A DNA stretch of 64,000 nt from Candidatus Saccharimonadota bacterium (GTDB lineage Bacteria > Patescibacteriota > Saccharimonadia > Saccharimonadales > SZUA-47): contig CP065013.1 of assembly GCA_016700315.1 (NCBI GenBank), forward strand, positions 65,449-129,448. The letters are read 5' to 3'. A program made the position numbers and the translations under genes. The notes under the pieces are model-generated. The model saw nothing but the letters and a program-made list of their open reading frames with translations, did not search any database and was not told the origin of the DNA. This document shows, in pieces, positions 4,645-56,919 of this stretch. How positions within the stretch are numbered: position 1 is the first letter of the stretch; the number at the start of each line of letters is the position of its first letter.

Positions 4645-5759
4645 GTCGAACTAATTGTAACCGACACATCACCATCTGCAAAACTAAGATCAAAACTTTT
4701 TTCGTTTTTAGCTTTGACCGCGGAGACAATGTACTTGCCGTTTTTTCTAGCCAGAGCATAGCCGCGCCGCAAAACCGCTGCCGGGTCAAGAACCCGAAGC
4801 GCCTTGGTGCTAGACTCTATAGCTTTTCTTTTGTTGCTAAAGATCCTATCGACAACCGCATTCAATACATCAGTCCTAACACCGATCCAGCTGCTGTTAG
4901 CGCCAATACAGCCAATTAAACCTTGTCTCAACCAGTCATTTTTGTTTGCAAGATTTTGGATAAAGTCTTTCTTGTCGGGTAGTAGCAGCTCGGCCGCATT
5001 ACTAGGAGTACTTGCCCGTGCATCAGCCGCAAGCTCTGCCAAGCTAAAGTCACGTTCATGCCCTATTGCCGCCAAGGTTGGTATGCGACTTGAGGCCACA
5101 GCCCGCACAACTCTTTCATCATTAAATGCAGCCAGATCATCGGCACTACCGCCGCCGCGAGTGATCACCACAACATCCGCAGGCTGTTCGGCCAAGTTAG
5201 ATAAAGCTATGGCCTCGATAATTTGTGCCGGCGCATCGACGCCTTGCACCAAAACAGAATAAACCTCGATTTCTGCAAGCGGCCAGCGACTCCGAGCTAT
5301 TTTTATGAAATCACTGTATGCGGCTGACTCATCGGATGTCACTAGTGCTACTTTCTGCGGCAGCAGTGGCAGCGCTCTTTTTCTCTCGACAGCAAAAAGA
5401 CCTTCGCGCTCTAGCTTTTTTTGTAGCAAACTTGCCGCTTTTACAATCGAACCCTCGCCAACCGGCCTGACAGAACTTAAGTTGGCCGTAAAGCCGAATT
5501 GTGGGTGCAACCTCGGTGCAACCGTAACCTCAACCATCATTCCGTCTTCCAGCGGCCCCGGCAGCATATAGACTGTGCCAAAACAGTGTAGCTTGGCATA
5601 TTCATCACGCACATCAAAGTACAGCCATTTCCCCTTAGCAACACGAAAGTTAACCAGCTCACCAACTATGGTCATCTGCGGATAGACCATTTCTAAAGTC
5701 TGGTTAAGCAAACCTACAGCGTCACTAACACCTAAAATAATGCTTTCTATTCCCTGCAC
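4641..5759 (-). CDS. xseA: exodeoxyribonuclease VII large subunit
   Basis: 372 aa. The N-terminal OB fold reads VGELVNFRVAKGKWLYFDVRDEYAKLHCFG, followed by the catalytic region ITRGGGSADDL. It is translationally coupled to xseB. Confidence 0.85.
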   Translation of the reverse strand: MQGIESIILGVSDAVGLLNQTLEMVYPQMTIVGELVNFRVAKGKWLYFDVRDEYAKLHCFGTVYMLPGPLEDGMMVEVTVAPRLHPQFGFTANLSSVRPVGEGSIVKAASLLQKKLEREGLFAVERKRALPLLPQKVALVTSDESAAYSDFIKIARSRWPLAEIEVYSVLVQGVDAPAQIIEAIALSNLAEQPADVVVITRGGGSADDLAAFNDERVVRAVASSRIPTLAAIGHERDFSLAELAADARASTPSNAAELLLPDKKDFIQNLANKNDWLRQGLIGCIGANSSWIGVRTDVLNAVVDRIFSNKRKAIESSTKALRVLDPAAVLRRGYALARKNGKYIVSAVKAKNEKSFDLSFADGDVSVTISST

Positions 5760-9627: not shown

Positions 9628-11045
9628 GTGAAACAGTACATATCAATTCTTGGGAGGCTACCAAAGCTCTCGCTAGCCGAGCTAGAGGCCGTTTTTGGGG
9701 CGCAAAATATCCAGCCCTTCACGAGCGAAGCGGCGATAATAAATAGCGAGGTCACCGCCGCCGACTACGCACGGCTTGGCGGCAGTCTTAAGCTTGCCAA
9801 AATACTGGCTGAGCTCCCAAACGATTGGCCGTCAATCGAGCAGTACTTAAGCCGCACCCTACCTGAACATGCTAGCTACACCCAGGGCAAGCTAACGCTA
9901 GGCATAAGCCTATATGGCCTCAGAGTCCCCGTGCCCAAACTCCAGCGGTCGATACTAGGCTTCAAAAAATTACTCAAAACTAGCGGCAAGCCTGTGCGAG
10001 TAATCCTCAACAAAAACCTCGAACTTTCAACCGCCGAAGTCTATCACAATAAATTGACAACTCAGAATGCTTGGGAGCTACTGATAGTTAGCAGCGGCAA
10101 GCAAACATACCTAGCCCAAACTAAATTTGTTCAAGATATTGATAGCTACGTTGCCCGCGACCGCGGCCGACCAAAGCGCGACAGCAGAGTTGGTATGTTG
10201 CCACCAAAACTGGCTCAGACCATCATCAACCTTGCAGTTGACGAGTACGGAGTGCAAGGTACGCGGTACGATAACAACGGGCTGGTTGGCGCAAGTAACG
10301 GCACACGGCCTGCGCTTGAGGAAGTTTCGGTGCCAAGAGGAAGCGCGCAACGAGCCGTAGTAAACTACGGTGAAGTGAACACTGGACTCTTGAAGCCGGA
10401 AATGCCCAAGAAGCCGGCAGAGTTTCTGGCTCAGCCAGAAAGCAGGCCGGCTGGCGCAGTCTGTGTGCTAGATCCGTTCTGCGGAACTGGCGTGGTGCTG
10501 CAAGAAGCTCTGTTGATGGGCTACAGCGCCTATGGCAGCGACCTAGAACCACGAATGATCGATTATTCAAGAGACAACTTAGACTGGCTCTAAAGAACGT
10601 GAACGATCAAGAGGAATGATCGCTTATCAACTATCAACGAGTTTCGTTCCTGGTGGGATGCAACCACTACTATCGCTGGGATTTTTCAAAGCTCAAAGCA
10701 CAAGGCTCAAAGCTTGCGATTGCCTGCGAGACCTACCTTGGGCCTCCTCTAACTAAGCAGATTTCCGACAACGAACTCAGCAAAATGGTTGCAGCCGTAG
10801 ATAGGCTGCACGAGAAGTTTTTGATTAACCTTGCCAGCCAGATTAGTGCCAACACTCGCCTCTGCTTAGCAGTACCGGCTTGGCGGCGCGGCGTACGGGG
10901 GTACAAAAAGCTACCTGTGCTTGAAAAGCTAGAGCAAATCGGCTATAATTGGGTGAAATACGAACATTGTGACAGCAAAAATTTGTTTTATGATCGTGAA
11001 GATCAGTTTGTTGCCCGCCAACTCGTAACTATCACTAAGCAATAA
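9628..11045 (+). pseudogene. Trm11/THUMP-like SAM-dependent RNA methyltransferase, split into two ORFs (9628..10593 and 10653..11045)
   Basis: ORF1 has GRPKRDSRVGMLPPKLAQTIINLA and motif I VLDPFCGTGVVLQEALLMGY. ORF2, in a different frame, has the motif-IV-like ACETYLGPP. Stops lie between them in all joining frames. Confidence 0.45.
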
Positions 11046-11059
11046 GGAGTCTATAACAA

Positions 11060-11332
11060 ATGTCCAAGGTAAAAGCTGGCGGCACCAGTAAAAATGTCAA
11101 AGACAGTCCCGGCCAAAGACTTGGTCTAAAGCGCAGCGGCGGCCAAAAAGTCCGCGCAGGCGAAGTCTTGGTGCGCCAAGTTGGTGTCACTAAACTAGCT
11201 GGAGACGGCACCTACAAAGCTCGTAATCACACCATACATGCTGCTCGTGACGGCGTTGTAAGCTTTGTTACACGCCGCAAGAAAAACTACACCGGCAAAA
11301 CCGTCCGCCGCACCGAAGTCGTCGTTAAGTAA
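11060..11332 (+). CDS. rpmA: 50S ribosomal protein L27
   Basis: 90 aa. KAGGTSKNVKDSPGQRLGLKRSGGQKVRAGEVLVRQVG matches the L27 core pattern. Confidence 0.85.
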   Translation: MSKVKAGGTSKNVKDSPGQRLGLKRSGGQKVRAGEVLVRQVGVTKLAGDGTYKARNHTIHAARDGVVSFVTRRKKNYTGKTVRRTEVVVK

Positions 11333-12370: not shown

Positions 12371-12714
12371 CGCTACCTTCCGCCGAAGATGCCAAAGCGA
12401 GTAGCAGCTGGGACTTGGTCAAGGTCAAGGTTTAGCGGCCCTGTAGCCTGCAGCGTCTGTTCTGTTTCGACCGGTTTGTTAGTTTTTGTTTTGAATATCA
12501 TAATAATATTATCTTAGCATAAGCTTTATAATTTTGCAATGCTATAGTAACGAAAGGTATTATGTAATTTTTATAACATTACCAAAAATATGTTTTTTGG
12601 ATAGCACCTTATAATAAAGAACCGTGCGGAATAGGCAGTAATTATATAAGAAGCTATTATTGTCCTAGATTGGCATTTTTAGAAGGCTGCTTCGTAGGAG
12701 TTCGCTGCGCTAAA

Positions 12715-13155
12715 TTATGCTTCGTGAGGTAATTTTACGCCACTTTGTTTGGCGAGCTCAATAACTAGATTATAAATCTCTATCACTCTACCCTTTTGGG
12801 TTTTACTCTTAAAACTAGGCGTCGGCATATTTGCCATAGAATATAACTCTTTGATATCTGTTTCGATAGCAGCCAATCTACCTTCAACTCGGGTGAGCCT
12901 ATCAACAACATCACGTTGCGTTGATTCCATGCTAACCATGCGGGTTTCTAAGCCGTCCATGCGATTGTCCAAACCGTCCATGTGGGTTTCTAGACCGTCC
13001 ATGCGGGTTTCTAAGCCGTCCATGCGGGTTTCTAGACCACCGAACCTCTCATCTACTTTATCAAACCTGTCTGTAACTTCATTCGCAAAATTACCGATCA
13101 TATCTGTTAGCTGATCGATCTTTTTATCCAGGACTGTAAATTCATTAGACTTCAT
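12715..13155 (-). CDS. coiled-coil protein with five tandem MDGLETR-type heptads
   Basis: The ORF track starts at a TTG (13173); the first ATG is at 13155 (MKSNEFTVLDKK). The repeat reads GGLETRMDGLETRMDGLETHMDGLDNRMDGLETRM. Confidence 0.55.
   Translation of the reverse strand: MKSNEFTVLDKKIDQLTDMIGNFANEVTDRFDKVDERFGGLETRMDGLETRMDGLETHMDGLDNRMDGLETRMVSMESTQRDVVDRLTRVEGRLAAIETDIKELYSMANMPTPSFKSKTQKGRVIEIYNLVIELAKQSGVKLPHEA
12937..13041 (-). repeat. 5 x 21-nt tandem repeat inside the CDS
   Basis: The units on the + strand are catgcgggtttctaagccgtc, catgcgattgtccaaaccgtc, catgtgggtttctagaccgtc, catgcgggtttctaagccgtc and catgcgggtttctagaccacc. Confidence 0.9.
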
Positions 13156-13226
13156 ACTAACATTATAAATCAATCATGCGTACGAGGTTGCAGTATCTTT
13201 TACTTAAAAAACGGCAAAATCACAAC

Positions 13227-13723: not shown

Positions 13724-15316
13724 CTACAGCATAGATCTTATGAAACCGACGAACATTGGGTGCGGGCGGTTAGGGCGTGACTTAAACTCTGGATGCGCTT
13801 GTGTAGCTAAGAAGAAAGGATGATCTATGGCTTCGATCATTTCTACAAGATTGTTTTCGCGGTTTAGGCCACTGGCTTTGATACCCCAGCTCTCGTATTC
13901 GCTACGGAAGTCATTGTTACATTCACCGCGGTGTCGATGACGTTCGACAATTTCAGTTGCGCCATAAGTCTTGTGAGCTAGGCTGTTCTTTTCGATATGA
14001 CAAGCGTAGTTTCCTAGTCTCATTGTGCCGCCAGTTTGGAGCTTATCCTTTTGATCCTGCATAGTTGTGATTACTTGGTTCTTTGAAGCTTGATCTAACT
14101 CGAAGGTAGTAGCGCCGTGAACGCCTGCGTTACGCGCAGCCGCAATTACAGCCATTTGAAGTCCTAGACAAATTCCTAGATATGGTTTTTTATTCTGGAG
14201 TGCGTACTGCGCAGCCATTATTTTTCCCTCTAGACCGCGCTGCCCAAAACCTCCAGGTACCAGAATGCCGTCAAAATCTGCAAGCCCCACAGCTTTGTTC
14301 AGTTTTGCGGCATCAACCCATGTAATATCTACGTTCACACCTTCTTGCCAGCTGGCCGATCTAAGCGCTTCAAAAACCGACATATAAGTATCTGTGTTGT
14401 CCATATACTTTGCGATAAAGCCTACTTTGACAGTTTTTGGATGCTGCATTTTGGCTCGATCTACCACTTTGCGCCATTCTTTGAGGTCTGGTTTGCCAGT
14501 CTTTAAACCTAGCTTAGAAATAACGGCTTCAGCAATACCATCTTCTTCGAGAGTAAGAGGAACTTCATAGATAGTGGAGGCATTATGCAAAAGCGCAATT
14601 GCACTCTCAGAGACACCAGAGAATAGACTCAGCTTGCTACGTGCAGACTCGCTAGCTTGTTTTTCGCTGCGAGCAACTAAGATGTTTGGTGCAATACCTA
14701 GCCCACGCAAGTCCCGAACAGAATTCTGCGCTGGCTTGGTTTTGAATTCATTACTCGCTCCTAAATATGGCAAGTAAACAACGTGTACATAGGCGCAGTT
14801 CTCAAGACCAACTCTAATCCCAAGTTCTCTTATCGCCTCCATAAAACTCAACGATTCATAGTCGCCAACTGTACCGCCGATTTCTACAATGTGTACATCA
14901 TAGCCCTCACCTGCTTTTAGGATCCATTCTTGTATCGCACCTGTTAAGTGCGGGATGATCTGCACATCATCTCCGTCAAACTTGCCAGCCCGTTCGTCTT
15001 GAATGAGCTTGAGTAAAACTTTGCCGCTCATCAGGCTACTCCTGGTGTTTAGCTCTTCATCGATAAAACGCTCGTAATGGCCAAGATCGAGATCGGTCTC
15101 TGCTCCGTCATACGTAACATAGCACTCACCGTGTTCCCGAGGATTTAAAAGGCCCGCATCAACGTTTAGATACGGGTCACATTTTTGTAGATTCACTTTC
15201 AAGCCACGAGCTTTTAAGAGGTTGCCAATCGAGGCGGCAGTAATACCCTTCCCAAGTCCGGAAAGCACACCACCTGTAACAAATATAAATTTCGTTGGTT
15301 TTTTAACCAATTCCAA
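13724..15316 (-). CDS. pyrG: CTP synthase
   Basis: 530 aa. FIFVTGGVLSGLGKGITAASIG lies at the N-terminus. The glutamine amidotransferase half has GICLGLQ and HRHR. Confidence 0.9.
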   Translation of the reverse strand: MELVKKPTKFIFVTGGVLSGLGKGITAASIGNLLKARGLKVNLQKCDPYLNVDAGLLNPREHGECYVTYDGAETDLDLGHYERFIDEELNTRSSLMSGKVLLKLIQDERAGKFDGDDVQIIPHLTGAIQEWILKAGEGYDVHIVEIGGTVGDYESLSFMEAIRELGIRVGLENCAYVHVVYLPYLGASNEFKTKPAQNSVRDLRGLGIAPNILVARSEKQASESARSKLSLFSGVSESAIALLHNASTIYEVPLTLEEDGIAEAVISKLGLKTGKPDLKEWRKVVDRAKMQHPKTVKVGFIAKYMDNTDTYMSVFEALRSASWQEGVNVDITWVDAAKLNKAVGLADFDGILVPGGFGQRGLEGKIMAAQYALQNKKPYLGICLGLQMAVIAAARNAGVHGATTFELDQASKNQVITTMQDQKDKLQTGGTMRLGNYACHIEKNSLAHKTYGATEIVERHRHRGECNNDFRSEYESWGIKASGLNRENNLVEMIEAIDHPFFLATQAHPEFKSRPNRPHPMFVGFIRSML

Positions 15317-15388
15317 AAACCCCTTCTGCTCCCACGCTTATGGATATATTTTACACATTGCTCCGACAATAGACAAGAGAAATAAGAA

Positions 15389-15836
15389 GGCTTAAGGTTA
15401 TTGGTTAGACTGACTGGGAACCAAGGTCTAGGAGCTACGGACCCGGGTCTAGTAGCTAGCAAGTATTACCCCGTACTGCCTACCGCTCAAGTAGAGTCAA
15501 GAGTCAAGAGTCATGAACCAAGAGCTAGGGACTCGAATCTAGGGTCTAGGGACTAGGGACGAGTTTATAGTTTATAGTTGATGGTTTATAAAAGAGCAAT
15601 GATTAGGTTATAGGTTAGAGGTTAGAGTTTAGAGTGATTAGTAGGACTACGGTCTAGGGTCCAGGGACTAGGGTCTATTATAGAATTTAGAGCTTAGAAT
15701 TTAGAATTTTACGCTTGCTACTTACTACTAACTACTCGCTACTATCTCTGGGCTTATACTTTATACATAATACTTAATACTATCTAGAGCTTAGATTTTC
15801 TATCCCCTCGTTCATCGTCCGCCTTCGGTGGGCTTG
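15389..15836. repeat. mosaic of phase-locked heptanucleotide tandem repeats
   Basis: Manual phasing gives 58 consecutive 7-mers (15389-15794) in one register, in blocks of related units (gagtcaa x3, tagggtc/cagggac, tttatag, ggttaga, gaattta, ctactaa, ttaatac). Confidence 0.85.
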
Positions 15837-17051
15837 CTACTTTAGCGCACTGAAAGCTGCATCCAACTGCGGATCCAGTTTGGCTTTTATGTCATCAAGG
15901 CTGCGCTTAACTTCTTGGTCTGGTTTTATGCCTTCTTTGTCGATATTTTTATCTGACGGCGTATACCAACGAGCAATCGTGACCTTAAGTGTGCCACCAC
16001 TCTTTAGGGGGATAACCTGCTGCACACTGCCTTTACCATAGGACTTCACACCAATTAGAGTTGCCTTGCCGTTATCTTTTAGTGCTCCAGCCGTAATCTC
16101 GCTAGCGCTGGCGCTACCTTCATTGATCAGTACAACAGTCTTTGCATCTTTAAACTTCTGATTGCCGCTGGCCTTGAGGGTTTGTATAACTTTACTACCC
16201 TGTTTTTCCATAAGCACAGTCTGGCCTTTATCAAGCCACAGACTAGATAGCGCAACCGCTGCATTCAGTGAGCCACCTGGATCGTTACGTAAATCTAGTA
16301 CGATCTTTTTGATACCTTTTTGGTTAAAATCATCTGCAGCTTTTTCGGCCAAACTCGCGGTGTCATCCCAAAAACGAGAAACAGTTATTATGCCGACATC
16401 GCCTTTGATCTCAGACTTTACGCTAGGAATGTTAATTTGAGCACGAGTAATATCGAAGCTCAGTGCTTCGGTTTCCCCGCGCACGATTCCTAGCTTCACT
16501 TTCGTACCTTCTTTACCTCTGATTTTGTCTACGGCTTGGCTAACGCTTAAGCCTGCGGCCGACTGGTCATCTATGCTAGCAATTACGTCTTTAGGCAGTA
16601 AGCCTGCCTTCGAAGCTGGACTATCTGCAATCGGAGAAATAACTACGAGTTTTTCGCCATCTTTACCAAGCTCAGCCCCGATCCCACTGAATGTACCGCT
16701 AAGCTCTTGATTAAACTCTTTGCTGCCTTCTTCGTTAAAATATTCGGTGTAAGGATCACCTGTTGCCTGAGCTAGGCCTATTTTAATACCGTCAATTAGC
16801 TTATTTGTGTCTAGTTCACCATCGTAATTTTCTTTCAACTCAGAATAGAGCTCATCAACACTTGAGAAATCTAGCTCTTTTGGCGTAGTGCTTACGGCTA
16901 CTTTTTTTGTACCATCTAGACTAATGCGACCGCTGCCAATACCCCAGCCTGCAAAAAACAAGCCAGAAGCCAAAATCAAGGTCAGTGCTAGTTTTCCGTA
17001 TTTGGTTTTGTTGTTAGCTCGCTTAGCAAAAGCGTCTTCGCTATTTTCCAA
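15837..17051 (-). CDS. ctpA: S41 family carboxy-terminal processing protease with PDZ domain
   Basis: 404 aa with an N-terminal TM anchor and a PDZ domain (SPIADSPASKAGLLPKDVIASID). The S41 core reads LINEGSASASEI, KSYGKGS. Confidence 0.85.
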   Translation of the reverse strand: MENSEDAFAKRANNKTKYGKLALTLILASGLFFAGWGIGSGRISLDGTKKVAVSTTPKELDFSSVDELYSELKENYDGELDTNKLIDGIKIGLAQATGDPYTEYFNEEGSKEFNQELSGTFSGIGAELGKDGEKLVVISPIADSPASKAGLLPKDVIASIDDQSAAGLSVSQAVDKIRGKEGTKVKLGIVRGETEALSFDITRAQINIPSVKSEIKGDVGIITVSRFWDDTASLAEKAADDFNQKGIKKIVLDLRNDPGGSLNAAVALSSLWLDKGQTVLMEKQGSKVIQTLKASGNQKFKDAKTVVLINEGSASASEITAGALKDNGKATLIGVKSYGKGSVQQVIPLKSGGTLKVTIARWYTPSDKNIDKEGIKPDQEVKRSLDDIKAKLDPQLDAAFSALK

Positions 17052-18618: not shown

Positions 18619-18800
18619 GATTAGGGATTAGCAGCAAGCAGTAAGTCCGCCGAAGGCGGGCCTAGAACGATGAACGAAGAACGAGGAAGTCGAAAATCTA
18701 AAAAAAATTCATAAACAGTTATCAGCAAACAGTCTTCAGTCTTCATTCACGAGTATTCAGTCTTCATCTATCAACTATAAACCCGAAGCTTTAGCCCTTA
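18619..18800. repeat. phase-locked heptamer tract (26 units) ending at the ftsX stop codon
   Basis: gattagg gattagc agcaagc agtaagt ccgccga aggcggg cctagaa cgatgaa cgaagaa cgaggaa ... agtcttc agtcttc attcacg agtattc agtcttc atctatc aactata, all in one register. Confidence 0.8.
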
Positions 18801-19733
18801 CCAATGCTTCAGCTTCAAATGTCGTTCCATCGCCAAAAGACTCGAGAATACTCCTATCATTACCCCTATGAGAATCGAACCAAGTAACATAGCAATCATG
18901 ATAGAAGTTTTTGTAAAAAGTTGGTAAGTTGCAGCGAACTCTGCCTGTTCTGCTACTTTAGCTCCGATTGAAACGACCATTGCATAGACAATGCTGTTAG
19001 CCAAAATACCTGCAATTATCCCATATAAGGCCGACTCAACCAGGAATGGTCCACGTATGTAGTTAGGTGTAGCGCCGATTAACTTCATAATTCTTATCTC
19101 TTCTTGACGAGTAAAAATGGCCATTCTAATGGTGTTAAAAATTATCATGATTGAGATAATCGCCAAAGTACCGGCCGCCACAATACTCCCAACTGTTATG
19201 GACTTCTGCGCGCCGGCTGCACGATCTATCGTTTTTTTAGCGTCTGTTTGGCCAAGTGAAACGTTACTTACTATGTCTCTAAACTCGTTTGCTTCTGCAA
19301 CTGTCTGGACTTCTGAGATTCTTGATAAATCTTTGACGCTGACCTTATATGAGGCAGGCAGTACCCCGCCACCAACCAAAGCATAGGCCTGCAGAATCTC
19401 TTCATTATTCTTGAAGCTACCTGCTAAGTCCTTCTGGGCTTTTTCTGGACTGATGTATTCGATACTATCAACATTATTGTTTGCTTTTAGGGCGCTAAAC
19501 AGCTTTTGCCTGTCACTATCACTAACGTCGTCTTTGAGATAAACTGCTGCTTTTAGATTTTTGGCGATCTGGTTGATGGCGTTGCTGGCAGTTACATTCA
19601 AAACAACTGCTAGCTGGATTATGACCAAAGAAACAATCATAACTGCGATAGCTGCGATAGTCAGCCATGAGTTTCGGAAAAGGTTTTTGGCGCCCATACT
19701 GAGCACTCGACGGAGAGTATTGAGGTTTTTCAT
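18798..19733 (-). CDS. ftsX: cell division permease-like protein FtsX
   Basis: 311 aa with four TM helices and a large first extracellular loop. It overlaps ftsE by 4 nt. Confidence 0.85.
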   Translation of the reverse strand: MKNLNTLRRVLSMGAKNLFRNSWLTIAAIAVMIVSLVIIQLAVVLNVTASNAINQIAKNLKAAVYLKDDVSDSDRQKLFSALKANNNVDSIEYISPEKAQKDLAGSFKNNEEILQAYALVGGGVLPASYKVSVKDLSRISEVQTVAEANEFRDIVSNVSLGQTDAKKTIDRAAGAQKSITVGSIVAAGTLAIISIMIIFNTIRMAIFTRQEEIRIMKLIGATPNYIRGPFLVESALYGIIAGILANSIVYAMVVSIGAKVAEQAEFAATYQLFTKTSIMIAMLLGSILIGVMIGVFSSLLAMERHLKLKHW

Positions 19734-20416
19734 CTCTGGACGTACTCCGATCCAGCCCGATCACTTATTACGCGGCCGTCCTTAATTGTCACAACTCGGC
19801 GACGCAGTTTATTAACAATCTCCTGGTTGTGAGTAGTCAAGATCACGGTGGTTCCGAAACGGTTAATTTTTTCGAGGACGCGTATGACGTCCCACGCATG
19901 TTTGGGGTCGAGGTTGCCCGTTGGCTCATCGGCTATTAATATTTTGGGCTGTCTAACAACTGCTCTAGCAATCGCTACACGCTGACGCTCTCCACCAGAT
20001 AGTTCGGCCGGGTAAAAATGCTCTTTGCCCTTTAGCCCTACGATATCTAAAACTTTGGGCACTGTATGGGCGATCTCTTTGTTGCCCATGCCAACTATCT
20101 CTAGCGCGAAGGCTACATTCTCAAAAACTGTACGCTTTGGCAGCAGCTTAAAATCCTGAAACACAACGCCAATTTTACGTCGTAGGTATGGAATATCTTT
20201 GTTTTTCAGTTTGTCATAATCAACGCCGCCGATCACGATCTTGCCGCTAGTCGGGCGTTCTTCTCGGGTTAGTAGCCGTAGAAGCGTACTCTTACCCGCC
20301 CCGCTCTGGCCAATAATAATAACAAACTCTTTGGGTTCGACGTGTAAAGAGACACGATCGAGCGCCGCCCCCGCTTTTTTGCTATAAGCCATTGTTACCC
20401 GATCGAGCAGTATCAT
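19730..20416 (-). CDS. ftsE: cell division ATP-binding protein FtsE
   Basis: 228 aa with Walker A GQSGAGKST, signature LSGGERQR and Walker B ILIADEPT. Confidence 0.9.
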   Translation of the reverse strand: MILLDRVTMAYSKKAGAALDRVSLHVEPKEFVIIIGQSGAGKSTLLRLLTREERPTSGKIVIGGVDYDKLKNKDIPYLRRKIGVVFQDFKLLPKRTVFENVAFALEIVGMGNKEIAHTVPKVLDIVGLKGKEHFYPAELSGGERQRVAIARAVVRQPKILIADEPTGNLDPKHAWDVIRVLEKINRFGTTVILTTHNQEIVNKLRRRVVTIKDGRVISDRAGSEYVQR

Positions 20417-20466
20417 ACTCTTATAGTATAAAGTATCGAGTAATAAGTATAAAGCTTATGCGGTTT

Positions 20467-29004: not shown

Positions 29005-29073
29005 CTATAATTATTATACAACTAACAGTCTACAGTCTACAGCTTTTAGTTATTATTTTTTGCTTTTTAGGAT

Positions 29074-29862
29074 TTATGATATAGATTTTAGTGCTTTTAG
29101 AGTTAGCTCTGTTCTGGCTTTGGCATAAGCACAGAATTCGCAAGGACCGCCCATGGCAGCCGTACCCACCTCTGGCATTTTGTCGTTATCAAGACAATTT
29201 TTCATGGCAACAAGCGTATCGCCCACCCAGTCGCTCTTGCCTTTATGCGGGAAAACATGAGTCTCGAACTCAACAACATTGTTAAAGCCGGCACGATCAG
29301 TCGTTCCGGTAGCATAAACAAAGTAACCAGTATCGCTGACGTCGAAGCCATTGGCTCGTAGTAACCATTGATAAATCTCCATCTGCCGGCGGTACATGTC
29401 TTGCCAGCCGCCTTCAGCGCCTAGTTCTTTAACGGGCTTATCTTTGGCAGTAGCTTTGTAGTCAACGACCATCAGTTTGCCGGCATCATCCACCCAGATG
29501 TCGTCTACTGCGCCAAAAACGTGTAAGTTCGTAGGTTCGTGCAGAGTCGCAACCCCAACAAAATTCTCTCGCCAAGTATCGAGATCTTTGTGAGCATAAG
29601 GCACCGCTCTTACTTTGTGTTCAAGCATCAAAGGATGCGGCTCAGCTTTGGCCCGATACATATCAAACTCTTTCTTAAAAAGTTCGTCGATGGCTTTATT
29701 GATATTGAACGGCGGGCTACTGGGCCGTTTAATCTTAAGCCGGGCGTCTAGCCAAAAACAACGTGGGCACTGCATGAAAAGTTCGATCTTACTACGGCTT
29801 ACTTTAAACGGCTCTTTCTGCCCTGACTGATACGGTTTTGATCTCTCCCTCATGTAACTCAT
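29074..29862 (-). CDS. PD-(D/E)XK (RecB/Cas4-like) nuclease family protein with terminal Cys pairs
   Basis: 262 aa with QCPRC near the N-terminus, VVDYKA (D-x-K core), QMEIYQWLL (QxxxY) and a C-terminal CEFC. Confidence 0.65.
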   Translation of the reverse strand: MSYMRERSKPYQSGQKEPFKVSRSKIELFMQCPRCFWLDARLKIKRPSSPPFNINKAIDELFKKEFDMYRAKAEPHPLMLEHKVRAVPYAHKDLDTWRENFVGVATLHEPTNLHVFGAVDDIWVDDAGKLMVVDYKATAKDKPVKELGAEGGWQDMYRRQMEIYQWLLRANGFDVSDTGYFVYATGTTDRAGFNNVVEFETHVFPHKGKSDWVGDTLVAMKNCLDNDKMPEVGTAAMGGPCEFCAYAKARTELTLKALKSIS

Positions 29863-29921
29863 GTACTTAGGTTATAGGTTTTAGGTTAGAGGGTCTAGGG
29901 TTAAAGTTACAACTAGGATGA

Positions 29922-42244: not shown

Positions 42245-43759
42245 CTAAAATTTCAGTTCTGAGTAGATAGACTTTGTTACGTCGTCTATTTCGTGGCGCA
42301 TTTGTGGGAACGGCACACCCTCACGGGCCGAAACACCTTCAAAAATCCAAAAAACACGTTCAGAAAAGCCAAGCCCACAAGTTGGCGGCATGCCATATTC
42401 GAGCATTTCGACGTAATCAATATCAAGCATTTGAGCTTCTGCATCGCCGCTGGCGCGCATCGCTTCTTGTTCTAGGAAGCGATTTAACTGATCAATTGGG
42501 TCATTAAGCTCAGAATAGCCGTTGCACAATTCGCTGCCAGCAATCACTGCCTGAAAACGCTGCACAGTATCGGGATTTTCAAGATTAGTTTTTGCAAGCG
42601 GACTAATAAATAACGGCGTATTGATTAGCCAAGCTGGCCCCGCCACACCTGCCCTGATTCGTTTCCAAAGCTTGTCGATAGACCGCGGAATATTATCGGT
42701 TTTTTCGACCTCAAGTTTGTGTTCTTTTAATGCTTTTTGGACCTGCTCCAACGTACAATCAAAAACATCTATACCGTACTCGGCTTTGATAACACTTGCG
42801 TAATCGAGTTTGGCCCATGGTTTTGCAAAATCGACCTCGAAACCACGAAGGTTGAACTTCTTGGTTCCAAAAGTTTTTTCTAGCACAAAGCTAAACATGT
42901 CTTCCATCAGCTGCATACCATCTTGCCAGCTAGCGTAAGCCCAATACCATTCCATTGCGATATGCTCTGGCAGATGCTCTTCTGTATAATTTTCGTTTCT
43001 AAAACGCGGCCCGATATCGTAGACTTTTTCGTAACCGCCGCCTATCAATCTTTTAAGTGGCAGCTCATGACTAATGCGTAAATAAAAATCCTGATCCAGC
43101 GCATCCATGTGAGTAACAAATGGGTTCGCGTCAGCCCCGCCAGTTGTGTGCTCAAGTACTGGGATGTTTACTTCCAAAAACCCACGCTCATTCATAAAAT
43201 CTCTGGTAGCCTGCCAAAACTTACTACGCCTAATGTATCGCTGTTTTACTTCATCATTGACATTGGTATCTATGTATCTACGACGTAGGCGCTGTTCTTT
43301 GTCAGTAAAACCCTCCTGACGTGTTGGCATCGGCCTCAAAGCTTTGGAAAGCAAGCGCATAGTTTTTACTTCGACCGATATTTCGCCGGTCTGGGTTCTA
43401 ACCACTTCGCCTCTAGCCTCAACGAAATCGCCACTGTCGAGCAGTGGTAATTCTTCTGGCACTGCCAGCTCGCTATCAGCCCGTTTCGGGTTGCCAGATT
43501 GGTTATCCGCCTTAACAAAAAGCTGCAGTTCACCACTAGCATCTTTTATGACCACGAACGCTATTTTGCCAAACTTACGGATTGAGACTATGCGACCAAC
43601 CACACCGACCGTCGCACCTTCTAGCTGGTCGAAGTCATTCAATATCTGCCCTAAATTGTGTGTACGATTAGAATCTGCCGGGTATGGGTTTATGCCAAGC
43701 TTTCTCAGCTCTTCAAGTTTGCGCAGTCGCTCATCACGAAAATCTTTTAGTGTTGCCAT
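42245..43759 (-). CDS. lysS: lysine--tRNA ligase (class II)
   Basis: 504 aa with an N-terminal OB anticodon-binding domain and class II core motifs (FRNENYTEEHLPE, GLGFSERV). Confidence 0.9.
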   Translation of the reverse strand: MATLKDFRDERLRKLEELRKLGINPYPADSNRTHNLGQILNDFDQLEGATVGVVGRIVSIRKFGKIAFVVIKDASGELQLFVKADNQSGNPKRADSELAVPEELPLLDSGDFVEARGEVVRTQTGEISVEVKTMRLLSKALRPMPTRQEGFTDKEQRLRRRYIDTNVNDEVKQRYIRRSKFWQATRDFMNERGFLEVNIPVLEHTTGGADANPFVTHMDALDQDFYLRISHELPLKRLIGGGYEKVYDIGPRFRNENYTEEHLPEHIAMEWYWAYASWQDGMQLMEDMFSFVLEKTFGTKKFNLRGFEVDFAKPWAKLDYASVIKAEYGIDVFDCTLEQVQKALKEHKLEVEKTDNIPRSIDKLWKRIRAGVAGPAWLINTPLFISPLAKTNLENPDTVQRFQAVIAGSELCNGYSELNDPIDQLNRFLEQEAMRASGDAEAQMLDIDYVEMLEYGMPPTCGLGFSERVFWIFEGVSAREGVPFPQMRHEIDDVTKSIYSELKF

Positions 43760-43856
43760 ATGTAATTGATTATAGATTATAGATTATAGAATTCCGAATT
43801 TTGTGGGACCATTAAGTTGCACTGACCCAAATAGACATAAAATCTACCCGCAGCGA

Positions 43857-43960
43857 ACTACTACTAACTACTAACTACTAACTACTAACTACTAACTACT
43901 AACTACTAACTACTAACTACTAACTACTAACTACTAACTACTAACTACTAACTACTAACT
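43857..43960. repeat. (CTACTAA)14 perfect heptamer array abutting the greA stop codon
   Basis: I counted 14 consecutive perfect copies at 43861-43958, plus a degenerate copy on the lysS-proximal (low-coordinate) side. On the transcribed minus strand the unit is TTAGTAG. Confidence 0.95.
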
Positions 43961-48327: not shown

Positions 48328-48384
48328 CTGTCAAATTACTAGTTTATCTTACTTTAGAATTTAGGATTTAGTACTTAGAATTTA

Positions 48385-48948
48385 CTAAAGTGTCATTATT
48401 TCTTGCTCTCTGGCTTTGGCTACCGACTCAATTTCGGCTTTGACCTTTGCCATAGCTTCGTCGATCTGCTTTTCTAGTCGGGCTACGTCATCTTTACTTG
48501 CAAGCTTATCTTTTTCGGCTTGAGTAATTTTACTCCTAGCTTCGTGTCGGGCGTTGCGCATAGCAATCATGCTCTCCTCAAGCTTTTCATGGAGCTGCTT
48601 AACGATTTGGGCGCGGCGTTCAGTTGTGAGCGGCGGTATCTGCAGGCGTATCACATGACCATCGTCCGAGGGGTTCAAGCCCAGACTCTGGTTGTCACGA
48701 ATTGCTTGAGAGATGGCACTCAGGTTACTTGGGTCAAAAGGAGAAATTTGAATCAGCTGAGCCTCAGGAGTAGTAATAGTAGCCAGCTGAACCAGTGGCA
48801 TTGGCGTGCCGTAGGCTAGCGCAGTGACACCCTCAACCATGCTCGGGTGGGCCCGGCCAGTACGAAGCTTCTTGGCCTCGTCCTCAAAACGTTCACGAGC
48901 TTTGTCGAACTCTTTTTTGGCTGTTTCTAGATAAGAATTTGGGTTCAT
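48385..48948 (-). CDS. frr: ribosome recycling factor
   Basis: 187 aa. GRAHPSMVEGV ... IRLQIPPLTEERR-type sequence (here IRLQIPPLTTERR). Confidence 0.9.
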   Translation of the reverse strand: MNPNSYLETAKKEFDKARERFEDEAKKLRTGRAHPSMVEGVTALAYGTPMPLVQLATITTPEAQLIQISPFDPSNLSAISQAIRDNQSLGLNPSDDGHVIRLQIPPLTTERRAQIVKQLHEKLEESMIAMRNARHEARSKITQAEKDKLASKDDVARLEKQIDEAMAKVKAEIESVAKAREQEIMTL

Positions 48949-50545: not shown

Positions 50546-50629
50546 AAAAAATCCTTTCAGTAAATTTTAGTTGTTGGTAGATAGAAGATGGTAGATGGTA
50601 GCTCTCAACTACCAAATACTAACTACTGC

Positions 50630-51379
50630 CTACTCTTTTGTTTCTTCCGCTTTGGCTTGCTTGTCCGCAGAAACTTCGTCGGAGTTTTTGGCGGATGCGC
50701 CCTGTCCTGCTTCTATAGCTTTTTTGACTTCGTCAAGTATAAGTTTAACGGCCTTTAGCGAGTCGTCGTTGCATGGAATTGGGTACTTTATATCTGAAGG
50801 ATCGGTGTTGGTATCAACTAGGGCCACGACAGGTATATTTAGTTTGTTCGCTTCAGCAACTGCATTTTTGTCGGCTAGAATGTCGAGCACAAAAACTACC
50901 CCCACTCTTGCAGCCATGTGTTTCACACCAAGATAAAGCTCGTTCATGGCGTCGATTTCCTCTTGGAAACGCTGTACTTCAAGCTTGTTGTATTTGTTTG
51001 CAAGCTCACCGCTCTCCATGCGTGCCTCTAGATCTTTGAGGTGCTTGACGCGTGCATTCATGGTATTGGCGTTAGTCAGCATGCCGCCCAACCAACGATT
51101 GGTAACATATGGCATTTTGGTAGACTGCGCAACCTCAAGTAGCGACTCTTGCATCTGCTTTTTGGTTGAGACTAGCAGCACCTGTTTACCGCTTGCAACT
51201 TCTTTTTCGATGAAGGCTAACGCCTCATCGAGCATTGGCACAGTCTTAGCAAGGTCAATAATATGAACTCCGCCACGCTTACTGTGAATATATTGTGCCA
51301 TTTTAGGGTGCCAACGGCTAGTTTTGTGGCCAAAATGTGCGCCGGCCTCAAATAGCGCTTTTATATCGACGTCTGACAT
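50630..51379 (-). CDS. rpsB: 30S ribosomal protein S2
   Basis: 249 aa. LFEAGAHFGHKTSRWHPKM and VTNRWLGGMLTN are present. The C-terminal tail is acidic and Lys-rich. Confidence 0.9.
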   Translation of the reverse strand: MSDVDIKALFEAGAHFGHKTSRWHPKMAQYIHSKRGGVHIIDLAKTVPMLDEALAFIEKEVASGKQVLLVSTKKQMQESLLEVAQSTKMPYVTNRWLGGMLTNANTMNARVKHLKDLEARMESGELANKYNKLEVQRFQEEIDAMNELYLGVKHMAARVGVVFVLDILADKNAVAEANKLNIPVVALVDTNTDPSDIKYPIPCNDDSLKAVKLILDEVKKAIEAGQGASAKNSDEVSADKQAKAEETKE

Positions 51380-51510: not shown

Positions 51511-53280
51511 TCAATACTCTTTGTGCAACTTTTGGCGGTTCCAAAGCTTGGCGTAAAGCCCGTTTTTCGTAAGCAAAGCTTCATGACTGCCTTCTTCTAT
51601 AATCCTACCTTTGTCAACCACTATGATGCGGTCCATGTGAGAAAGTGTACTCAAACGGTGGGCCACTACAATGGCTGTTTTACCCTTAAATATTTCAACA
51701 AATGAGTCCTTTATAATCTGCTCACTCTCACTATCGAGCGCGCTGGTGGCTTCGTCAAAAACGACAATTGGTGTATTTTGTAGTACAGCGCGCGCGATCG
51801 CTACACGCTGCTTCTGGCCGCCGCTAAGTTTTACTCCTCTCTCGCCAACTACACTTTGATAACCCAGTGGTAGCACGTCTATGAACTCTGCGGCGTGCGC
51901 AGCTTTAGCAGCCTTTTTGACTTTATCCACCGAGGCATCAGGCTGACCGATCAAGATATTGTTGAGAATTGTATCGTGAAAAAGTAGCGGTTCTTGAGCC
52001 ACGTAAGCAACTTGCGAGCGTAGATCTTTTTGGAGCAAACTCCGAACATCAAAGCCATCAATCAAAACACTGCCTTCTTGCACATCTTCAAAGCGCATGA
52101 GTAGCTTTGTTAGTGTACTTTTGCCAGCACCACTTATACCAACAACACCCAACTTTTCTCCACGCTTTATTTTGAGATTGAATTTATCAAAAACCTTCGC
52201 AGCACCAGGCTCATAGGCAAAAGTCACATCAGAGAAGTCAATATCTCCTTTTATCCGCCCTACTGTTGCCGGTTCCGCCGGGTCGGTAACTGTGCTTTTA
52301 TAAGAGTATACCTCAAGCGCTGGCAAAATTTTGTCTACATAATCATCATGTTCTTCTACTTTGTCCGACAATTCATAAATAGCTGTCATAATCGACAAGC
52401 TGTAAGCCGCCATCAACACAGCTTCGGCCACACCGATCGCCCCACTTTTCATTCGTGAAACGGTGAGAAGAAATGTCAACAGAAAGAACACAACCGTTAT
52501 ACCTTCACGTATTAGAGCTAGTTTGGCCTGCTTGATATAACGAGTTGTAAATAGTTTAGTTTCACGCTGCAACTTGACTTTCAAATCTTCCGACTTGGAG
52601 TCTTCCTGCGCTGTTGAACGTACCGCCAAGATATTAGAAATAGTGTCTGAAATGAAGCCAGAGCCTAGCCTGTATTGTTCACGTGACTCGCTACGTAGAC
52701 TAGATAAGGCATTAGAAGCCCAAAACAAGTAGACTATCTGAACGCCAGCAAGGATAGCGGTCGCCAAACCCAGTGGAATATCATAGTAAGCTATAACCCC
52801 CACCGGCATGACGATAGCCATGACGGCGTTGATATATTTATCTCGCAAACTCCTCTCAAGATTCAAGGTATTATCAGAAAATTGCCTGACAGAAGTCGTA
52901 AGGTAGCCTGCCATGTTGTCGTTAAAAAACTTCATGTCAGTCGACAGCAGTTTGGCGAAGTAGTCCTTTACGGCAGATGCATATATTCGGTTTTCGTCTC
53001 TCAGTGACAAAAACTTGGTTGCAGGGTTAAGAAGCCCAAGCAGTGCAGAAAAGATTGCATACATAAAGCTAAACTTAACTGCGGCCGCAAAATCATACCG
53101 CGACAAGTGATAGACAATGCGACTAACCATAATTGGGAGCATTATCAGTTTACAAACCCTACTCAACATCAAAGTCAGATACGAAGCACGGACTTTCCAA
53201 CTCTGACCATAAGTAGACCACAGCAAGCCGTAAACAAGCCGATAATCAGCTAGTGCTTTCTTTTTTCCCATTGAATTCAT
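51511..53280 (-). CDS. ABC exporter, fused permease/ATPase (MsbA-like type I exporter)
   Basis: 589 aa with a six-TM N-terminal half. It has Walker A GISGAGKST, signature LSGGQKQR and Walker B VVFDEATS. Confidence 0.85.
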   Translation of the reverse strand: MNSMGKKKALADYRLVYGLLWSTYGQSWKVRASYLTLMLSRVCKLIMLPIMVSRIVYHLSRYDFAAAVKFSFMYAIFSALLGLLNPATKFLSLRDENRIYASAVKDYFAKLLSTDMKFFNDNMAGYLTTSVRQFSDNTLNLERSLRDKYINAVMAIVMPVGVIAYYDIPLGLATAILAGVQIVYLFWASNALSSLRSESREQYRLGSGFISDTISNILAVRSTAQEDSKSEDLKVKLQRETKLFTTRYIKQAKLALIREGITVVFFLLTFLLTVSRMKSGAIGVAEAVLMAAYSLSIMTAIYELSDKVEEHDDYVDKILPALEVYSYKSTVTDPAEPATVGRIKGDIDFSDVTFAYEPGAAKVFDKFNLKIKRGEKLGVVGISGAGKSTLTKLLMRFEDVQEGSVLIDGFDVRSLLQKDLRSQVAYVAQEPLLFHDTILNNILIGQPDASVDKVKKAAKAAHAAEFIDVLPLGYQSVVGERGVKLSGGQKQRVAIARAVLQNTPIVVFDEATSALDSESEQIIKDSFVEIFKGKTAIVVAHRLSTLSHMDRIIVVDKGRIIEEGSHEALLTKNGLYAKLWNRQKLHKEY

Positions 53281-53355: not shown

Positions 53356-53694
53356 ATGAAAAAAGATATCCACCCGACCAATTATCAGTTTGTTGTTTTC
53401 GAAGATTTGAACGACGGCACGCGCTTTTTGACACGCGCATGTGTTGCCAGTGAGGAAACAACTAAATGGGAAGATGGCAACACCTACCCATTAGTTAAAG
53501 TGCACATTTCAAGCTCTTCTCACCCATTCTTCACTGGTCAAGAGAAGCTAATCGACATCGAAGGCCGCGTTGACAAGTTTGAAGCTCGCCGCAAAGCCGC
53601 CGAAGAAGCCCGCAAAGCCGCTGCCGCTCGTGTCAGCAAGGCAGATAAAAAAGCTGCGAAAGCCGAAAAAGACGAATCCAAGAAAATAGGTTAG
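53356..53694 (+). CDS. rpmE: 50S ribosomal protein L31 (type B, no CxxC) with a Lys/Ala-rich C-terminal extension
   Basis: First ATG at 53356. [21 protein letters not shown]...HPFFTG matches the L31 pattern. Confidence 0.85.
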
Positions 53695-53717
53695 AGGTTA
53701 TAGGTTAGAGGTTATAG
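53689..53717. repeat. heptamer tract ggttaga ggttata ggttaga ggttata overlapping the rpmE stop
   Basis: Read directly from the sequence. An inverted, imperfect copy lies inside prfA at 54318-54348. Confidence 0.85.
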
Positions 53718-53721
53718 ATAA

Positions 53722-54075
53722 ATGCCTATAACTTCTTACGAGCAACTTACCGTATGGCAAAAGTCTTTCGAACTAGTGAGACAAGTGTATGTTTTGACAG
53801 AAAAGCTGCCTAAACACGAGCAGTTTGGGTTATCTAACCAGATTCGACGTTGTGCAGTTTCGATACCAAGTAATATAGCTGAAGGACAACAAAGACATAG
53901 CCGAAAAGAGTATCTGCAGTTTCTGGCAATAGCAAGAGGCTCGGCTGCAGAACTGGATACCCAACTACTACTTATTGAGAGTATCTACGGTTTAGATTGC
54001 GAAAAAGAACTAAGCTTACTAGACGAAGTACAAAGAATGCTTACTGTATTAACAAATAAACTTAGCGCTTTATAA
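53722..54075 (+). CDS. four-helix-bundle protein (23S rRNA intervening-sequence protein / Avd-like family)
   Basis: 117 aa. [70 protein letters not shown] is the family signature. Confidence 0.8.
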
Positions 54076-55443: not shown

Positions 55444-56292
55444 ATGACTATTAAAAGATGGATTTTAGATAGTACTCTATTATTAAGCCCCTACTCCGCT
55501 ACCGCAAGATTAGACTGCGAGGTATTGCTAGCGCACGTTTTAGACAAAGATAGAGTTTGGCTGCTGGCTCACCCAGAGCACGTTCTTCAAGGACAGTCCC
55601 TGAAAAGAGTAGATCGGTATTTGCAGCGCCGTAAATCTCAGGAACCGATCGCTTACATAATCGGCCACAGTGAATTTTATGGGCGTGAGTTTGAGGTTTC
55701 GGCTGATACTCTGCAGCCGCGCCCGGAAACAGAGACCATGGTTGAGCTTCTTCTCGACACAATAAACAGTAAACAGTTGTCGGTAAACAGTATTGTTGAT
55801 GTTGGCACTGGATCTGGCGCAATTATTATCTCTGCATTCCTAGAGCTCTCTATCAACCATAAACTATCAACTATCAACTTCCATGCTACCGACATCAGCC
55901 CAGCTGCTTTAGAAATCGCCCGTCAAAACGCTAAGAGGTACGATGCTGATATCAAATTCTATCAAGGAGATTTACTAGGTCCCCTACTATCTACTATCTA
56001 CCATCTACCATCTGCCATAATTCTGGCTAATCTGCCCTATGTGCCAGACAGCCACACAATCAATCAAGCCGCCATGCACGAACCAAAACACGCTATTTTC
56101 GGCGGCACTGATGGCCTCGATTTGTATAGAACTATGTTCGACCAACTATCAACTATCAACTATCAACTATCAACTATCCTGTTTACAGAATCTTTACCTC
56201 CGCAGCATAAAGAATTAGCTCGGATTGCCGAACAAGCTGGCTTCAAGCAAATTGCCGAACAAGACTTTATCCAAGTTTTCGAAAAAAAGTAA
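55444..56292 (+). CDS. prmC: release-factor glutamine methyltransferase PrmC-like, with heptamer-encoded segments and NLPY in place of NPPY
   Basis: EPIAYIIGHSEFYGREFEV, LQPRPETE and motif I VDVGTGSGAI are present. Motif IV reads ANLPYV. I start at the ATG at 55444; the track starts at a TTG, 55417. Confidence 0.7.
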   Translation: MTIKRWILDSTLLLSPYSATARLDCEVLLAHVLDKDRVWLLAHPEHVLQGQSLKRVDRYLQRRKSQEPIAYIIGHSEFYGREFEVSADTLQPRPETETMVELLLDTINSKQLSVNSIVDVGTGSGAIIISAFLELSINHKLSTINFHATDISPAALEIARQNAKRYDADIKFYQGDLLGPLLSTIYHLPSAIILANLPYVPDSHTINQAAMHEPKHAIFGGTDGLDLYRTMFDQLSTINYQLSTILFTESLPPQHKELARIAEQAGFKQIAEQDFIQVFEKK

Positions 56293-56316
56293 TACTTTTT
56301 GTGTATAATTGCAATA

Positions 56317-56919
56317 ATGAATGTCGGGATTAGTAAAACTCAACGTACTGAGCTGGACACGATGTCTAGCCCAGAAGTATTAGGCAGATATTTTGAAAGT
56401 CTTCAGCAAGTAGCACGGCAAGGAGAAGCCATACGCGAAGAGGTAACAGACGGAGAAATCGAAGGAGCGTACACAGCTGGGTGGTCTTTAGGCAATCTAC
56501 GCTTTATTGAGGGCAAAGACCCTATCGAATCGGCCGATTTAGACCCAGTTACTATAACTAATGCCAAGTTTTTCAGAGCTCAGACTAGACTAGAAAGTTA
56601 TATTAACAACCGTTTTTTGGGCAGTATGGTGCAAGTAATACCACTCGATCAAGAAATTGTAGCAGCAAGAGCACCCTGGGGGACACTGTCTGTTGTGCCA
56701 CACTTTCTGAGGGGTGGTGAGACGAGACTTAATCATGCAAGATTACTAGCATTTGGGACTTCATCAAATGGCCGAACGGTGTTGTCTGTTGTAACAAGAC
56801 GAGGCTTACCTTCTATTACCCACTATATGAACATCGTTGGACCTGACGGTCCCAAAATCAGCATTAGTGTTAGAGATGACAAAAAACGCATGTCAGCAAA
56901 ATCTATATCCAGACTTTAG
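56317..56919 (+). CDS. hypothetical protein
   Basis: First ATG at 56317, with TATAAT at 56304-56309 just upstream. No recognised domain. Confidence 0.45.
   Translation: MNVGISKTQRTELDTMSSPEVLGRYFESLQQVARQGEAIREEVTDGEIEGAYTAGWSLGNLRFIEGKDPIESADLDPVTITNAKFFRAQTRLESYINNRFLGSMVQVIPLDQEIVAARAPWGTLSVVPHFLRGGETRLNHARLLAFGTSSNGRTVLSVVTRRGLPSITHYMNIVGPDGPKISISVRDDKKRMSAKSISRL

Follow-up and report, generated by a model that had tools for sequence, protein, structure and literature searches.

The spacer between the gene of an S41 peptidase and the CTP synthase gene pyrG in a genome of Candidatus Saccharibacteria (Saccharimonadales) is filled with a mosaic of short, head-to-tail arrays of 7-nt units. 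The window, that is, the whole stretch of DNA analysed, comprises 64,000 nucleotides of contig CP065013.1; positions without further indication refer to it, and the array survey of the source genome covers 64 kb out of about 1 Mb. The spacer array at 15389–15794 and similar arrays at other loci are probably hypermutable heptanucleotide DNA resembling the short tandemly repeated repetitive (STRR) sequences of cyanobacteria, in which units slip, segments are duplicated and blocks are copied ectopically, and which, filtered by selection, is left in spacers and protein loops only. On this explanation, the array is neither a structured RNA nor a conserved regulatory element.

The period of seven is real and far beyond chance. 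At 15389–15794, the sequence agreed in coordinates and listed 7-mers with the original prediction, which had been made from the letters alone. Self-match within this segment was 0.569 at lag 7, 0.487 at lag 14 and 0.413 at lag 21, with values of 0.20–0.29 at other lags, and Tandem Repeats Finder (TRF) called nine arrays of period 7. Over the whole 64 kb, 28-nt windows with a self-match of at least 75% numbered 192 at lag 7 and 115 at lag 14, compared with 0–1 at every other lag from 2 to 15. Exact doublets were found 23 times for period 7, once for period 8 and twice for period 9; the 23 doublets represent 18 canonical motifs, four of which were seen at two or more loci. Tracts of period 7 account for 9.5% of the intergenic and 0.49% of the coding bases; other lags reach 0.5% at most. 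Of the 54 spacers, 9 contain at least 21 period-7 bases. The arrays are mainly intergenic and spread over many loci. Their unit measures exactly 7 nt and is repeated head-to-tail, as is typical of STRR. The nine spacers with arrays are all flanked by genes of the same strand, a placement noted without a formal test and of little meaning, since most spacers of the window also lie between same-strand genes. The predicted recurrence of the motif families at other named junctions was confirmed and includes ordered multi-unit blocks; the case at 20417–20460 is weak and was not called by TRF.

The internal structure of the main array differs from the one first proposed. A single register of 58 units without slip does not hold, as the motif GGGTCTA occurs in three different phases within the array and blocks are offset by 3 and 2 mod 7. 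A 63-nt multi-block segment at 15529–15591 is repeated at 15644–15706 with 71% identity and an offset of 115 nt (3 mod 7), and a 35-nt block is repeated within the array at an offset of 226 nt (2 mod 7). With random rotation of the blocks, the observed positional information was attained in 12% of the trials (p = 0.12). Since a period-7 run allows cutting in every frame, the apparent single register is an effect of the cutting; a comparison of phases is meaningful between related motifs only. The accompanying claim of mutational drift with almost no indels is correct inside the blocks, where none was found, and fails between them, where the register is lost. Segmental duplication, also at offsets that are not multiples of 7, alters the arrays.

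With regard to composition, TAG is enriched 4-fold and CTA 2.7-fold over the compositional expectation, TAA is raised only mildly, and both TGA and ATG are depleted. CTA or TAG is present in 13 of the 18 motifs on the list of exact doublets. The statement that most units carry TAG, TAA or CTA was not borne out by counting within units, which gave 28 of 58; stops are indeed frequent in all six frames, at 7–18 per frame. The TAG/CTA excess is explained neither by slippage nor by a general stop-codon effect. Around the main array, only weak inverted repeats (21 nt, 71%) and no terminal inverted repeats were detected. The combination that marks miniature inverted-repeat transposable elements or repetitive extragenic palindromes (terminal inverted repeats or a palindromic unit, with target-site duplication) was not found, the duplications having been looked at in the allele flanks without a dedicated search.

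Variation between strains was followed on contigs from a dozen samples that encode exactly the same PyrG (from the first TTG start). Among them, the S41–pyrG spacer measures 520 nt (window), 513, 270 or 263 nt. The 520/513 and 270/263 classes can be aligned only in the first ~29 nt, the stem-loop end, which aligns across all strains, and in the last ~45 nt, which are the same in all 10 strain alleles; the flanks are 98–99.5% identical. The 196-nt core of the short class (type B) is also of period 7, with a lag-7 match of 0.466 that was attained in none of 5000 shuffles. Members of the same class differ in length by indels of precisely 7 nt, found at 15628 in L096, at 15499 in L098 and again when L101 is compared with L100. 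The expectation that orthologous spacers differ by multiples of 7 is therefore valid within each class and not between the classes, which differ by 250 nt and are unalignable. Growth and loss by whole units was confirmed, as every strain-level indel inside an array is 7 nt and the perfect array between greA and lysS has 14 copies in the window, 8 in L088 and 6 in L085. Such whole-unit copy differences between close strains are those expected of a contingency locus. The degenerate arrays of the ftsX–CHAP and rpsB–tsf spacers are identical in 4–5 strains. Thus, within these few strains, the long perfect array is variable and the degenerate ones are constant, as slippage predicts. Among the strains, each stem-loop variant is found with each array class, giving all four pairings, which indicates that the population recombines.

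Scans of genomes and metagenomes with PyrG found no relative above 75% identity, with 73–75% for the closest genome representative, and intermediates at 79–86% were obtained by protein search. No strong period-7 array was found in 17 loci (~240 kb) of Saccharibacteria at 63–86% PyrG identity. In the four relative loci where the S41 gene adjoins pyrG (two species, two contigs each), the spacers are 78–415 nt long and show no period 7. Judged from these loci, only this species-level lineage has undergone the intergenic bloom, and it did so recently.

Blocks of several units recur at different loci. One of them, AGAACGATGAACGAAGAACGAGGAA, with 25 nt (3.5 heptamer units) in the ftsX–CHAP spacer at 18664–18688, is found identically inside a methyltransferase-like open reading frame (ORF) of L093, L094, L096 and L097 (16656–16680 in L094); this identity between a spacer and an ORF supports the copying of array blocks from one locus to another. 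In L189, a heptamer mosaic of ~340 nt (10865–11200) follows prmC, in place of the 955-nt window segment 56283–57237 with its 206-aa ORF (56299–56919). Blocks of 26–32 nt in this mosaic match the window array at 91–96% identity, and a stretch of 27 nt matches the short class at 96%. The block TCTAACCTCTAACCTATAACC is present in three window spacers; a 25-nt block is common to 29866–29921, 15606–15630 and 53686–53717. The shared blocks keep the same order of variant units across loci. On the evidence of these sequence identities, blocks of 3–9 units are copied between unlinked loci, including into ORFs.

Heptamer tracts were also found in two genes that did not figure in the original prediction, prmC (55444–56292, plus strand; tracts within 55757–56191) and a methyltransferase-like gene (tracts at 10620–10716). 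The sense strand of the prmC tracts has no stops. Homologues were searched for peptide windows of 8 or 9 aa encodable solely by a tandem heptamer. Of 120 PrmC homologues across Saccharimonadales, 28 contained such a peptide with the 9-aa window and 35 with the 8-aa window, against 0 and 2, respectively, of 2400 shuffled PrmC sequences; none of 120 PyrG homologues did. All PrmC matches fall within four loops and involve at least 25 different heptamers. As a control, open frames from relatives totalling 127,000 aa were examined; matches occurred in the prmC of L190 only. At the DNA level, two distant genomes bear out the coding tracts: prmC of L190 (10317–10728) contains (ATCTGGA)4 and (CAAATAT)4, and that of L192 (2235–2594) contains (CTACCAT)~5 and (GAGTCAA)4.5; the strong period-7 regions of both loci all lie within prmC. 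Near-perfect tracts in proteins that are only ~55% identical suggest that the tracts are continually renewed. All prmC alleles seen are in frame; P0127, considered as a frameshifted OFF allele, turned out to be truncated by the end of its contig. Heptamers inferred from prmC of other lineages were not significantly shared with the intergenic arrays of the window (p = 0.06–0.6), and no period-7 signal was found in the 308-nt prfA–prmC spacer. The order-wide hot spot in prmC is an unexplained lead. If the tracts switch the enzyme, they would constitute an unusual repeat-driven variation in a core translation factor.

The methyltransferase-like gene is split in the window (9628–10593 and 10653–11045, 321 + 130 aa) and intact, with 483 aa, in L093, L094 and L097. 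The break, near 10590–10670, falls exactly at a loop with heptamer tracts and involves a net change of −7 nt plus several other changes. The orthologues in L185 and L187 carry weak heptamer tracts in the same loop.

Units would be gained and lost by slipped-strand mispairing during replication, with a preference for 7-nt units that is seen in many bacteria for an unexplained reason. Blocks may be copied by template switching or by short-patch recombination between arrays. Selection would act as a filter only, tolerating arrays in spacers and protein loops; in ORFs, they would persist solely in the stop-free orientation and in frame-keeping steps. Given slippage, copying and selective filtering, the arrays are best seen as a lineage-specific mutational by-product without sequence-specific function. 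Several observations weigh against this explanation. Neutral slippage does not account for the TAG/CTA enrichment and TGA depletion, and slippage as such explains neither the restriction to period 7, nor the bloom in this species and not in the relative at 86%, nor the strength of the prmC hot spot across the order. The long and short classes may be an old polymorphism of a recombining population, as an alternative to recent turnover. Finally, several arrays abut start codons, as in the Beggiatoaceae, where regulation has been proposed.

The functional roles suggested originally, insulators or binding arrays, found no support, as the arrays are absent in sister species, swapped between strains of ~99% identity and in frame within genes. 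It is quite unlikely that an abundant S1, CSP or CsrA-like regulator binds the units, as DNA or as single-stranded RNA, and thereby adjusts how the downstream gene is transcribed or translated. The over-representation of TAG/CTA units suggests a shared core, yet there are at least 18 different motifs, not one. The RNA is unstructured with a G-poor sense strand, and in some genes without a Shine–Dalgarno (SD)-like site (29074–29862, 42245–43759 and 19730–20416) an array reaches the start codon or stops no more than ~10 nt from it, but the main array lies upstream of the pyrG promoter-like site, outside the leader. Precedents exist in the TAACTGA repeats of the Beggiatoaceae (PMC4679880) and in the heptamer repeats described in Nostoc, for which regulation was proposed (bioRxiv 10.1101/2022.06.06.494920). 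Here, however, strains with identical flanking proteins have an unrelated or half-length array, related species have none in the same spacers, and the same kind of array occurs inside ORFs. A role as translational insulator, in which stops in all frames between co-oriented genes halt read-through or reinitiating ribosomes, is very improbable. The sense-strand stop density is 0.132 versus 0.066 ± 0.006 in shuffles, all six frames are closed, and three arrays (43860–43960, 48353–48387 and 53686–53717) begin at or overlap the upstream stop codon. Nevertheless, repeated units inflate the stop counts, and the antisense strand shows an enrichment as well. It is TAG in particular (CTA on the opposite strand) that is enriched, with TAA mildly raised and TGA depleted. 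A single in-frame stop would suffice, and relatives get by with repeat-free 78-nt spacers.

A dedicated process is unlikely, be it an enzyme that adds repeats from a template or the insertion and subsequent expansion of a small non-autonomous element made of stem-loop plus heptamers. It would fit the burst in one lineage, the identical 25-nt and near-identical 26–32-nt blocks at unlinked loci (one of them in an ORF), the L189 mosaic in place of a gene-bearing segment, and the stem-loop and GAACGAT module that stands in two spacers in opposite orientations. It is at odds with the many unrelated motifs, with the lack of terminal inverted repeats around the array, and with the non-significant sharing of heptamers with prmC of other lineages. 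No target-site duplication was noticed in the allele flanks, for which no dedicated search was made, and no reverse transcriptase or transposase stands beside the arrays in the annotated loci, an IS30-like gene being located elsewhere in some strains. A wider scenario regards the tracts in four surface loops of prmC, the gene of the release-factor glutamine methyltransferase, and those in at least one other methyltransferase-like gene as contingency loci that toggle or tune the enzyme. They would belong to a hitherto unrecognised, order-wide mutational system directed at a translation-termination factor and kept up by a clade-specific process, be it templated copying or a peculiarity of polymerase or repair that works in 7-nt steps. 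The TAG-rich intergenic mosaics of this species would be its spill-over and visible by-product. Taken as a whole, this scenario is distinctly unlikely. The probability of assembly artefacts of repetitive short reads is close to nil. Contigs from short reads often break at arrays, and most of those shown stop within ~60 nt past the greA stop codon, at the array start. The copy number of the perfect 14-unit array is the sole possible uncertainty of assembly. Artefacts are ruled out by the recurrence of identical arrays in independent assemblies, the degenerate ones being recovered base-for-base in those of ENA, JGI, NCBI and Logan. Hypermutable heptanucleotide DNA is thus retained as the probable explanation.

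The S41–pyrG spacer is bordered by the gene of the PDZ/S41 C-terminal processing peptidase (15837–17051, minus strand) and by pyrG (13724–15316, minus strand). On the sense strand, it has three parts: a stem-loop, CCACCGAAGGCGG, followed by GACGATGAACGA; the array; and a promoter-like site with a ribosome-binding site. The second hexamer of the promoter-like site is preceded by TGTG, and an SD-like site was detected upstream of pyrG. Scans of the spacer against Rfam and for tRNA/tmRNA gave no match, and a terminator scan gave no terminator-like site. The minimum free energy of the sense RNA was less stable than that of 98 of 100 shuffles (z = +2.2); since it folds less than the shuffles, the array is not an RNA element. 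A structured non-coding RNA or riboswitch leader was rejected for the missing Rfam match, the weak folding and the strain-variable sequence. The module shared with the ftsX–CHAP spacer consists of the stem-loop CC(G/A)CCGAAGGCGG, GAACGAT-type heptamers and GAAAATCTAA; its copies, at 15808–15831 (minus) and 18647–18684 (plus), have undefined ends and are oriented oppositely to each other with respect to the genes. Features are listed in Table 1.

Table 1. Heptamer arrays, tracts and boundary elements of the window.
Feature	Position	Strand	Description
Main mosaic, "type A" allele	15389–15794	.	~10 heptamer blocks of 3–6 units each, lying between the S41 stop codon and the pyrG promoter
Conserved left boundary	15808–15831	−	Stem-loop CCACCGAAGGCGG, then GGACGATGAACGA heptamers, directly 3' of the S41 stop codon
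Conserved right boundary	15317–15376	−	Promoter-like TTGTCT-17-TAAAAT and GGAG/AAGGGG ribosome-binding site before pyrG
Methyltransferase-like gene tracts	10620–10716	+	AACTATC and TCAAAGC, at the break point of the gene
ftsX–CHAP spacer	18647–18766	+	Stem-loop CCGCCGAAGGCGG, then GAACGAT/GAACGAA/GAACGAG, then CAGTCTT family; same in 4 strains
Weak CTTTATA-family tract	20417–20460	.	Directly upstream of an ftsE-like gene; 28 period-7 bases at the looser threshold of the coverage scan (15 of 21 matches)
(ACAGTCT)2.6 tract	29020–29061	.	Within a 69-nt spacer
GGTTATA/GGTTAGA/GGGTCTA tract	29866–29921	.	Occupies an entire 59-nt spacer
(GATTATA)3.3	43767–43790	.	Sense (CTATAAT)3, 10 nt upstream of the lysS start
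Perfect (ACTACTA)14.4	43860–43960	.	Sense (GTTAGTA)14, begins at the greA stop codon
(TTTAGAA)4.6 tract	48353–48387	.	Directly 3' of the RRF stop codon
rpsB–tsf spacer	50556–50630	.	Opposed GTAGTTA and CTACCAT heptamer runs
(ATAGGTTAGAGGTT)2.3 tract	53686–53717	.	Occupies the spacer between rpmE and an IVP-like gene
prmC tract 1	55757–55792	+	In-frame heptamers
prmC tract 2	55848–55889	+	CTATCAA, in frame
prmC tract 3	55977–56025	+	CTACCAT, encodes LPSTIYH
prmC tract 4	56131–56191	+	(CAACTAT)5, encodes QLSTINY

Some further observations concern these junctions. Degenerate heptamer runs occupy the rpsB–tsf spacer both in the window (50546–50629) and in the distant relative L190 (7545–7671), with different motifs, which suggests a persistent hot spot at this junction. 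The gene at 53722–54075 (plus strand), between rpmE and prfA and preceded by a spacer that a heptamer tract occupies, encodes a 117-aa member of the family of 23S rRNA intervening-sequence proteins; precomputed annotations also give it a faint bAvd match. In L085, a 99-aa ORF is located between greA and lysS (5193–5492); in the window (43812–43858, minus strand) and in L088, all that is left of it is the terminal ~47 nt, which follow the heptamer array immediately. A length difference between pyrH and RRF in L081, considered as an array, corresponds to a small ORF. An (AG)n run at ~20854 varies between strains, giving spacers of 505, 507 and 509 nt.

Other repeats of the window were rejected as heptamer arrays. 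The 21-nt repeat at 12936–13038 encodes the GLETRMD heptads of a coiled-coil protein (ORF 12715–13173, minus strand), which varies between strains in 21-nt steps (135–152 aa). The 63-nt repeat at 61658–62199 (8.6 copies, 96% identity; ORF 61608–63374, minus strand) encodes C-terminal repeats of 21 aa, LTSAEGLTNLAHIGGDAYFDR, in a 588-aa protein without Pfam match. Neither has an internal 7-nt period, and both are ordinary protein repeats.

With respect to the remaining genes, an SD-like site was found in only 27 of the 65 window genes, and many have a TATAAT-like hexamer 7–12 nt before the ATG, which suggests that leaderless or very short-leader mRNAs may be frequent. Strains also differ in gene content. 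The IS30-like gene (HTH_38 + rve) is inserted at ~12617 (12616–12618) in L093, L094 and L097. The two-gene segment 6843–9633 is absent from L094, and the segment 51481–53329 is absent from L082; the latter includes a 589-aa gene (51511–53280) assigned to an ABC-transporter family by the annotation of its L189 counterpart. In addition, an identical PrmC is encoded on a 988-kb NCBI contig.

Heptanucleotide repeats have long been noted, and left unexplained, in some bacterial genomes; here, they occur in a reduced ~1-Mb genome of the candidate phyla radiation (CPR). In line with the original prediction, a literature search found no description for Saccharibacteria or CPR, and it found none of such repeats in prmC. 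The dense set of near-identical strains together with graded relatives makes the birth, growth, copying and loss of arrays directly traceable. With three modes of change and a bloom confined to one species, the question of why the unit is 7 nt can be approached through the replication and repair genes of sister genomes. In practical terms, the arrays break short-read assemblies and yield spurious or split ORFs in metagenome-assembled CPR genomes.

Regarding known systems, the analogy with STRR proposed at the outset is apt. Like the arrays described here, the STRR of heterocystous cyanobacteria are 7-nt head-to-tail repeats, mainly intergenic, with several families per genome, many loci and unknown function. 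The phylum is different, cyanobacteria in one case and Saccharibacteria/CPR in the other, and the present arrays combine ~10 short blocks into a mosaic within a single spacer and are rich in TAG/CTA rather than in G/C. The classical STRR motifs are CCCCAGT, TTGGTCA and CAACAGT, none of which occurs in tandem in the window. Without these motifs and in a non-cyanobacterial host, the arrays work like STRR and are not members in the narrow sense. STRR primers serve to fingerprint Nostoc isolates, as mentioned in PMC5088731, which implies strain variation of STRR as well. An excess of heptamers is shown by many bacteria and was ascribed to polymerase slippage (Mrazek 2007, as cited in PMC4692102).

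The TAACTGA repeats of marine Beggiatoaceae, some cyanobacteria and Bacteroidetes (MacGregor 2015, PMC4679880) are likewise direct heptamer repeats, mostly intergenic; read one way they have stops in all frames, and read the other way they give an open, repeating peptide. This reverse reading, LSVISYQ, is close to the QLSTINY of prmC. That system has one motif in sets of 2–6 copies, usually just upstream of start codons, whereas many motifs and up to 58 units per spacer are found here. TAACTGA (complement TCAGTTA) occurs 11 times singly in the window, with no tandem doublet. The GGGAATC and GGGGA(T/C)T repeats of Xanthomonas and Nostoc (Rehm et al. 2015, PMC4692102) share the intergenic over-representation of heptamers and the variation in length and sequence among close relatives at conserved gene junctions. 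They are G-rich and form G-quadruplexes, unlike the present units, and GGGAATC was not found in tandem in the window, nor was any other heptamer named for the systems compared here.

For the prmC tracts, the closest match is the poly-psi (AAGACTC)n variable-number tandem repeat of NeuO, the phage O-acetyltransferase of E. coli K1 (PMC3046976). In both genes, three 7-nt units encode one heptad (RLKTQDS in NeuO, LPSTIYH and QLSTINY in PrmC), and full-length translation needs copy numbers that keep the frame. The NeuO tract is N-terminal, with 2–93 copies and demonstrated ON/OFF switching, whereas the prmC tracts occupy four internal loops with 3–6 units each, and the alleles observed include no OFF form.

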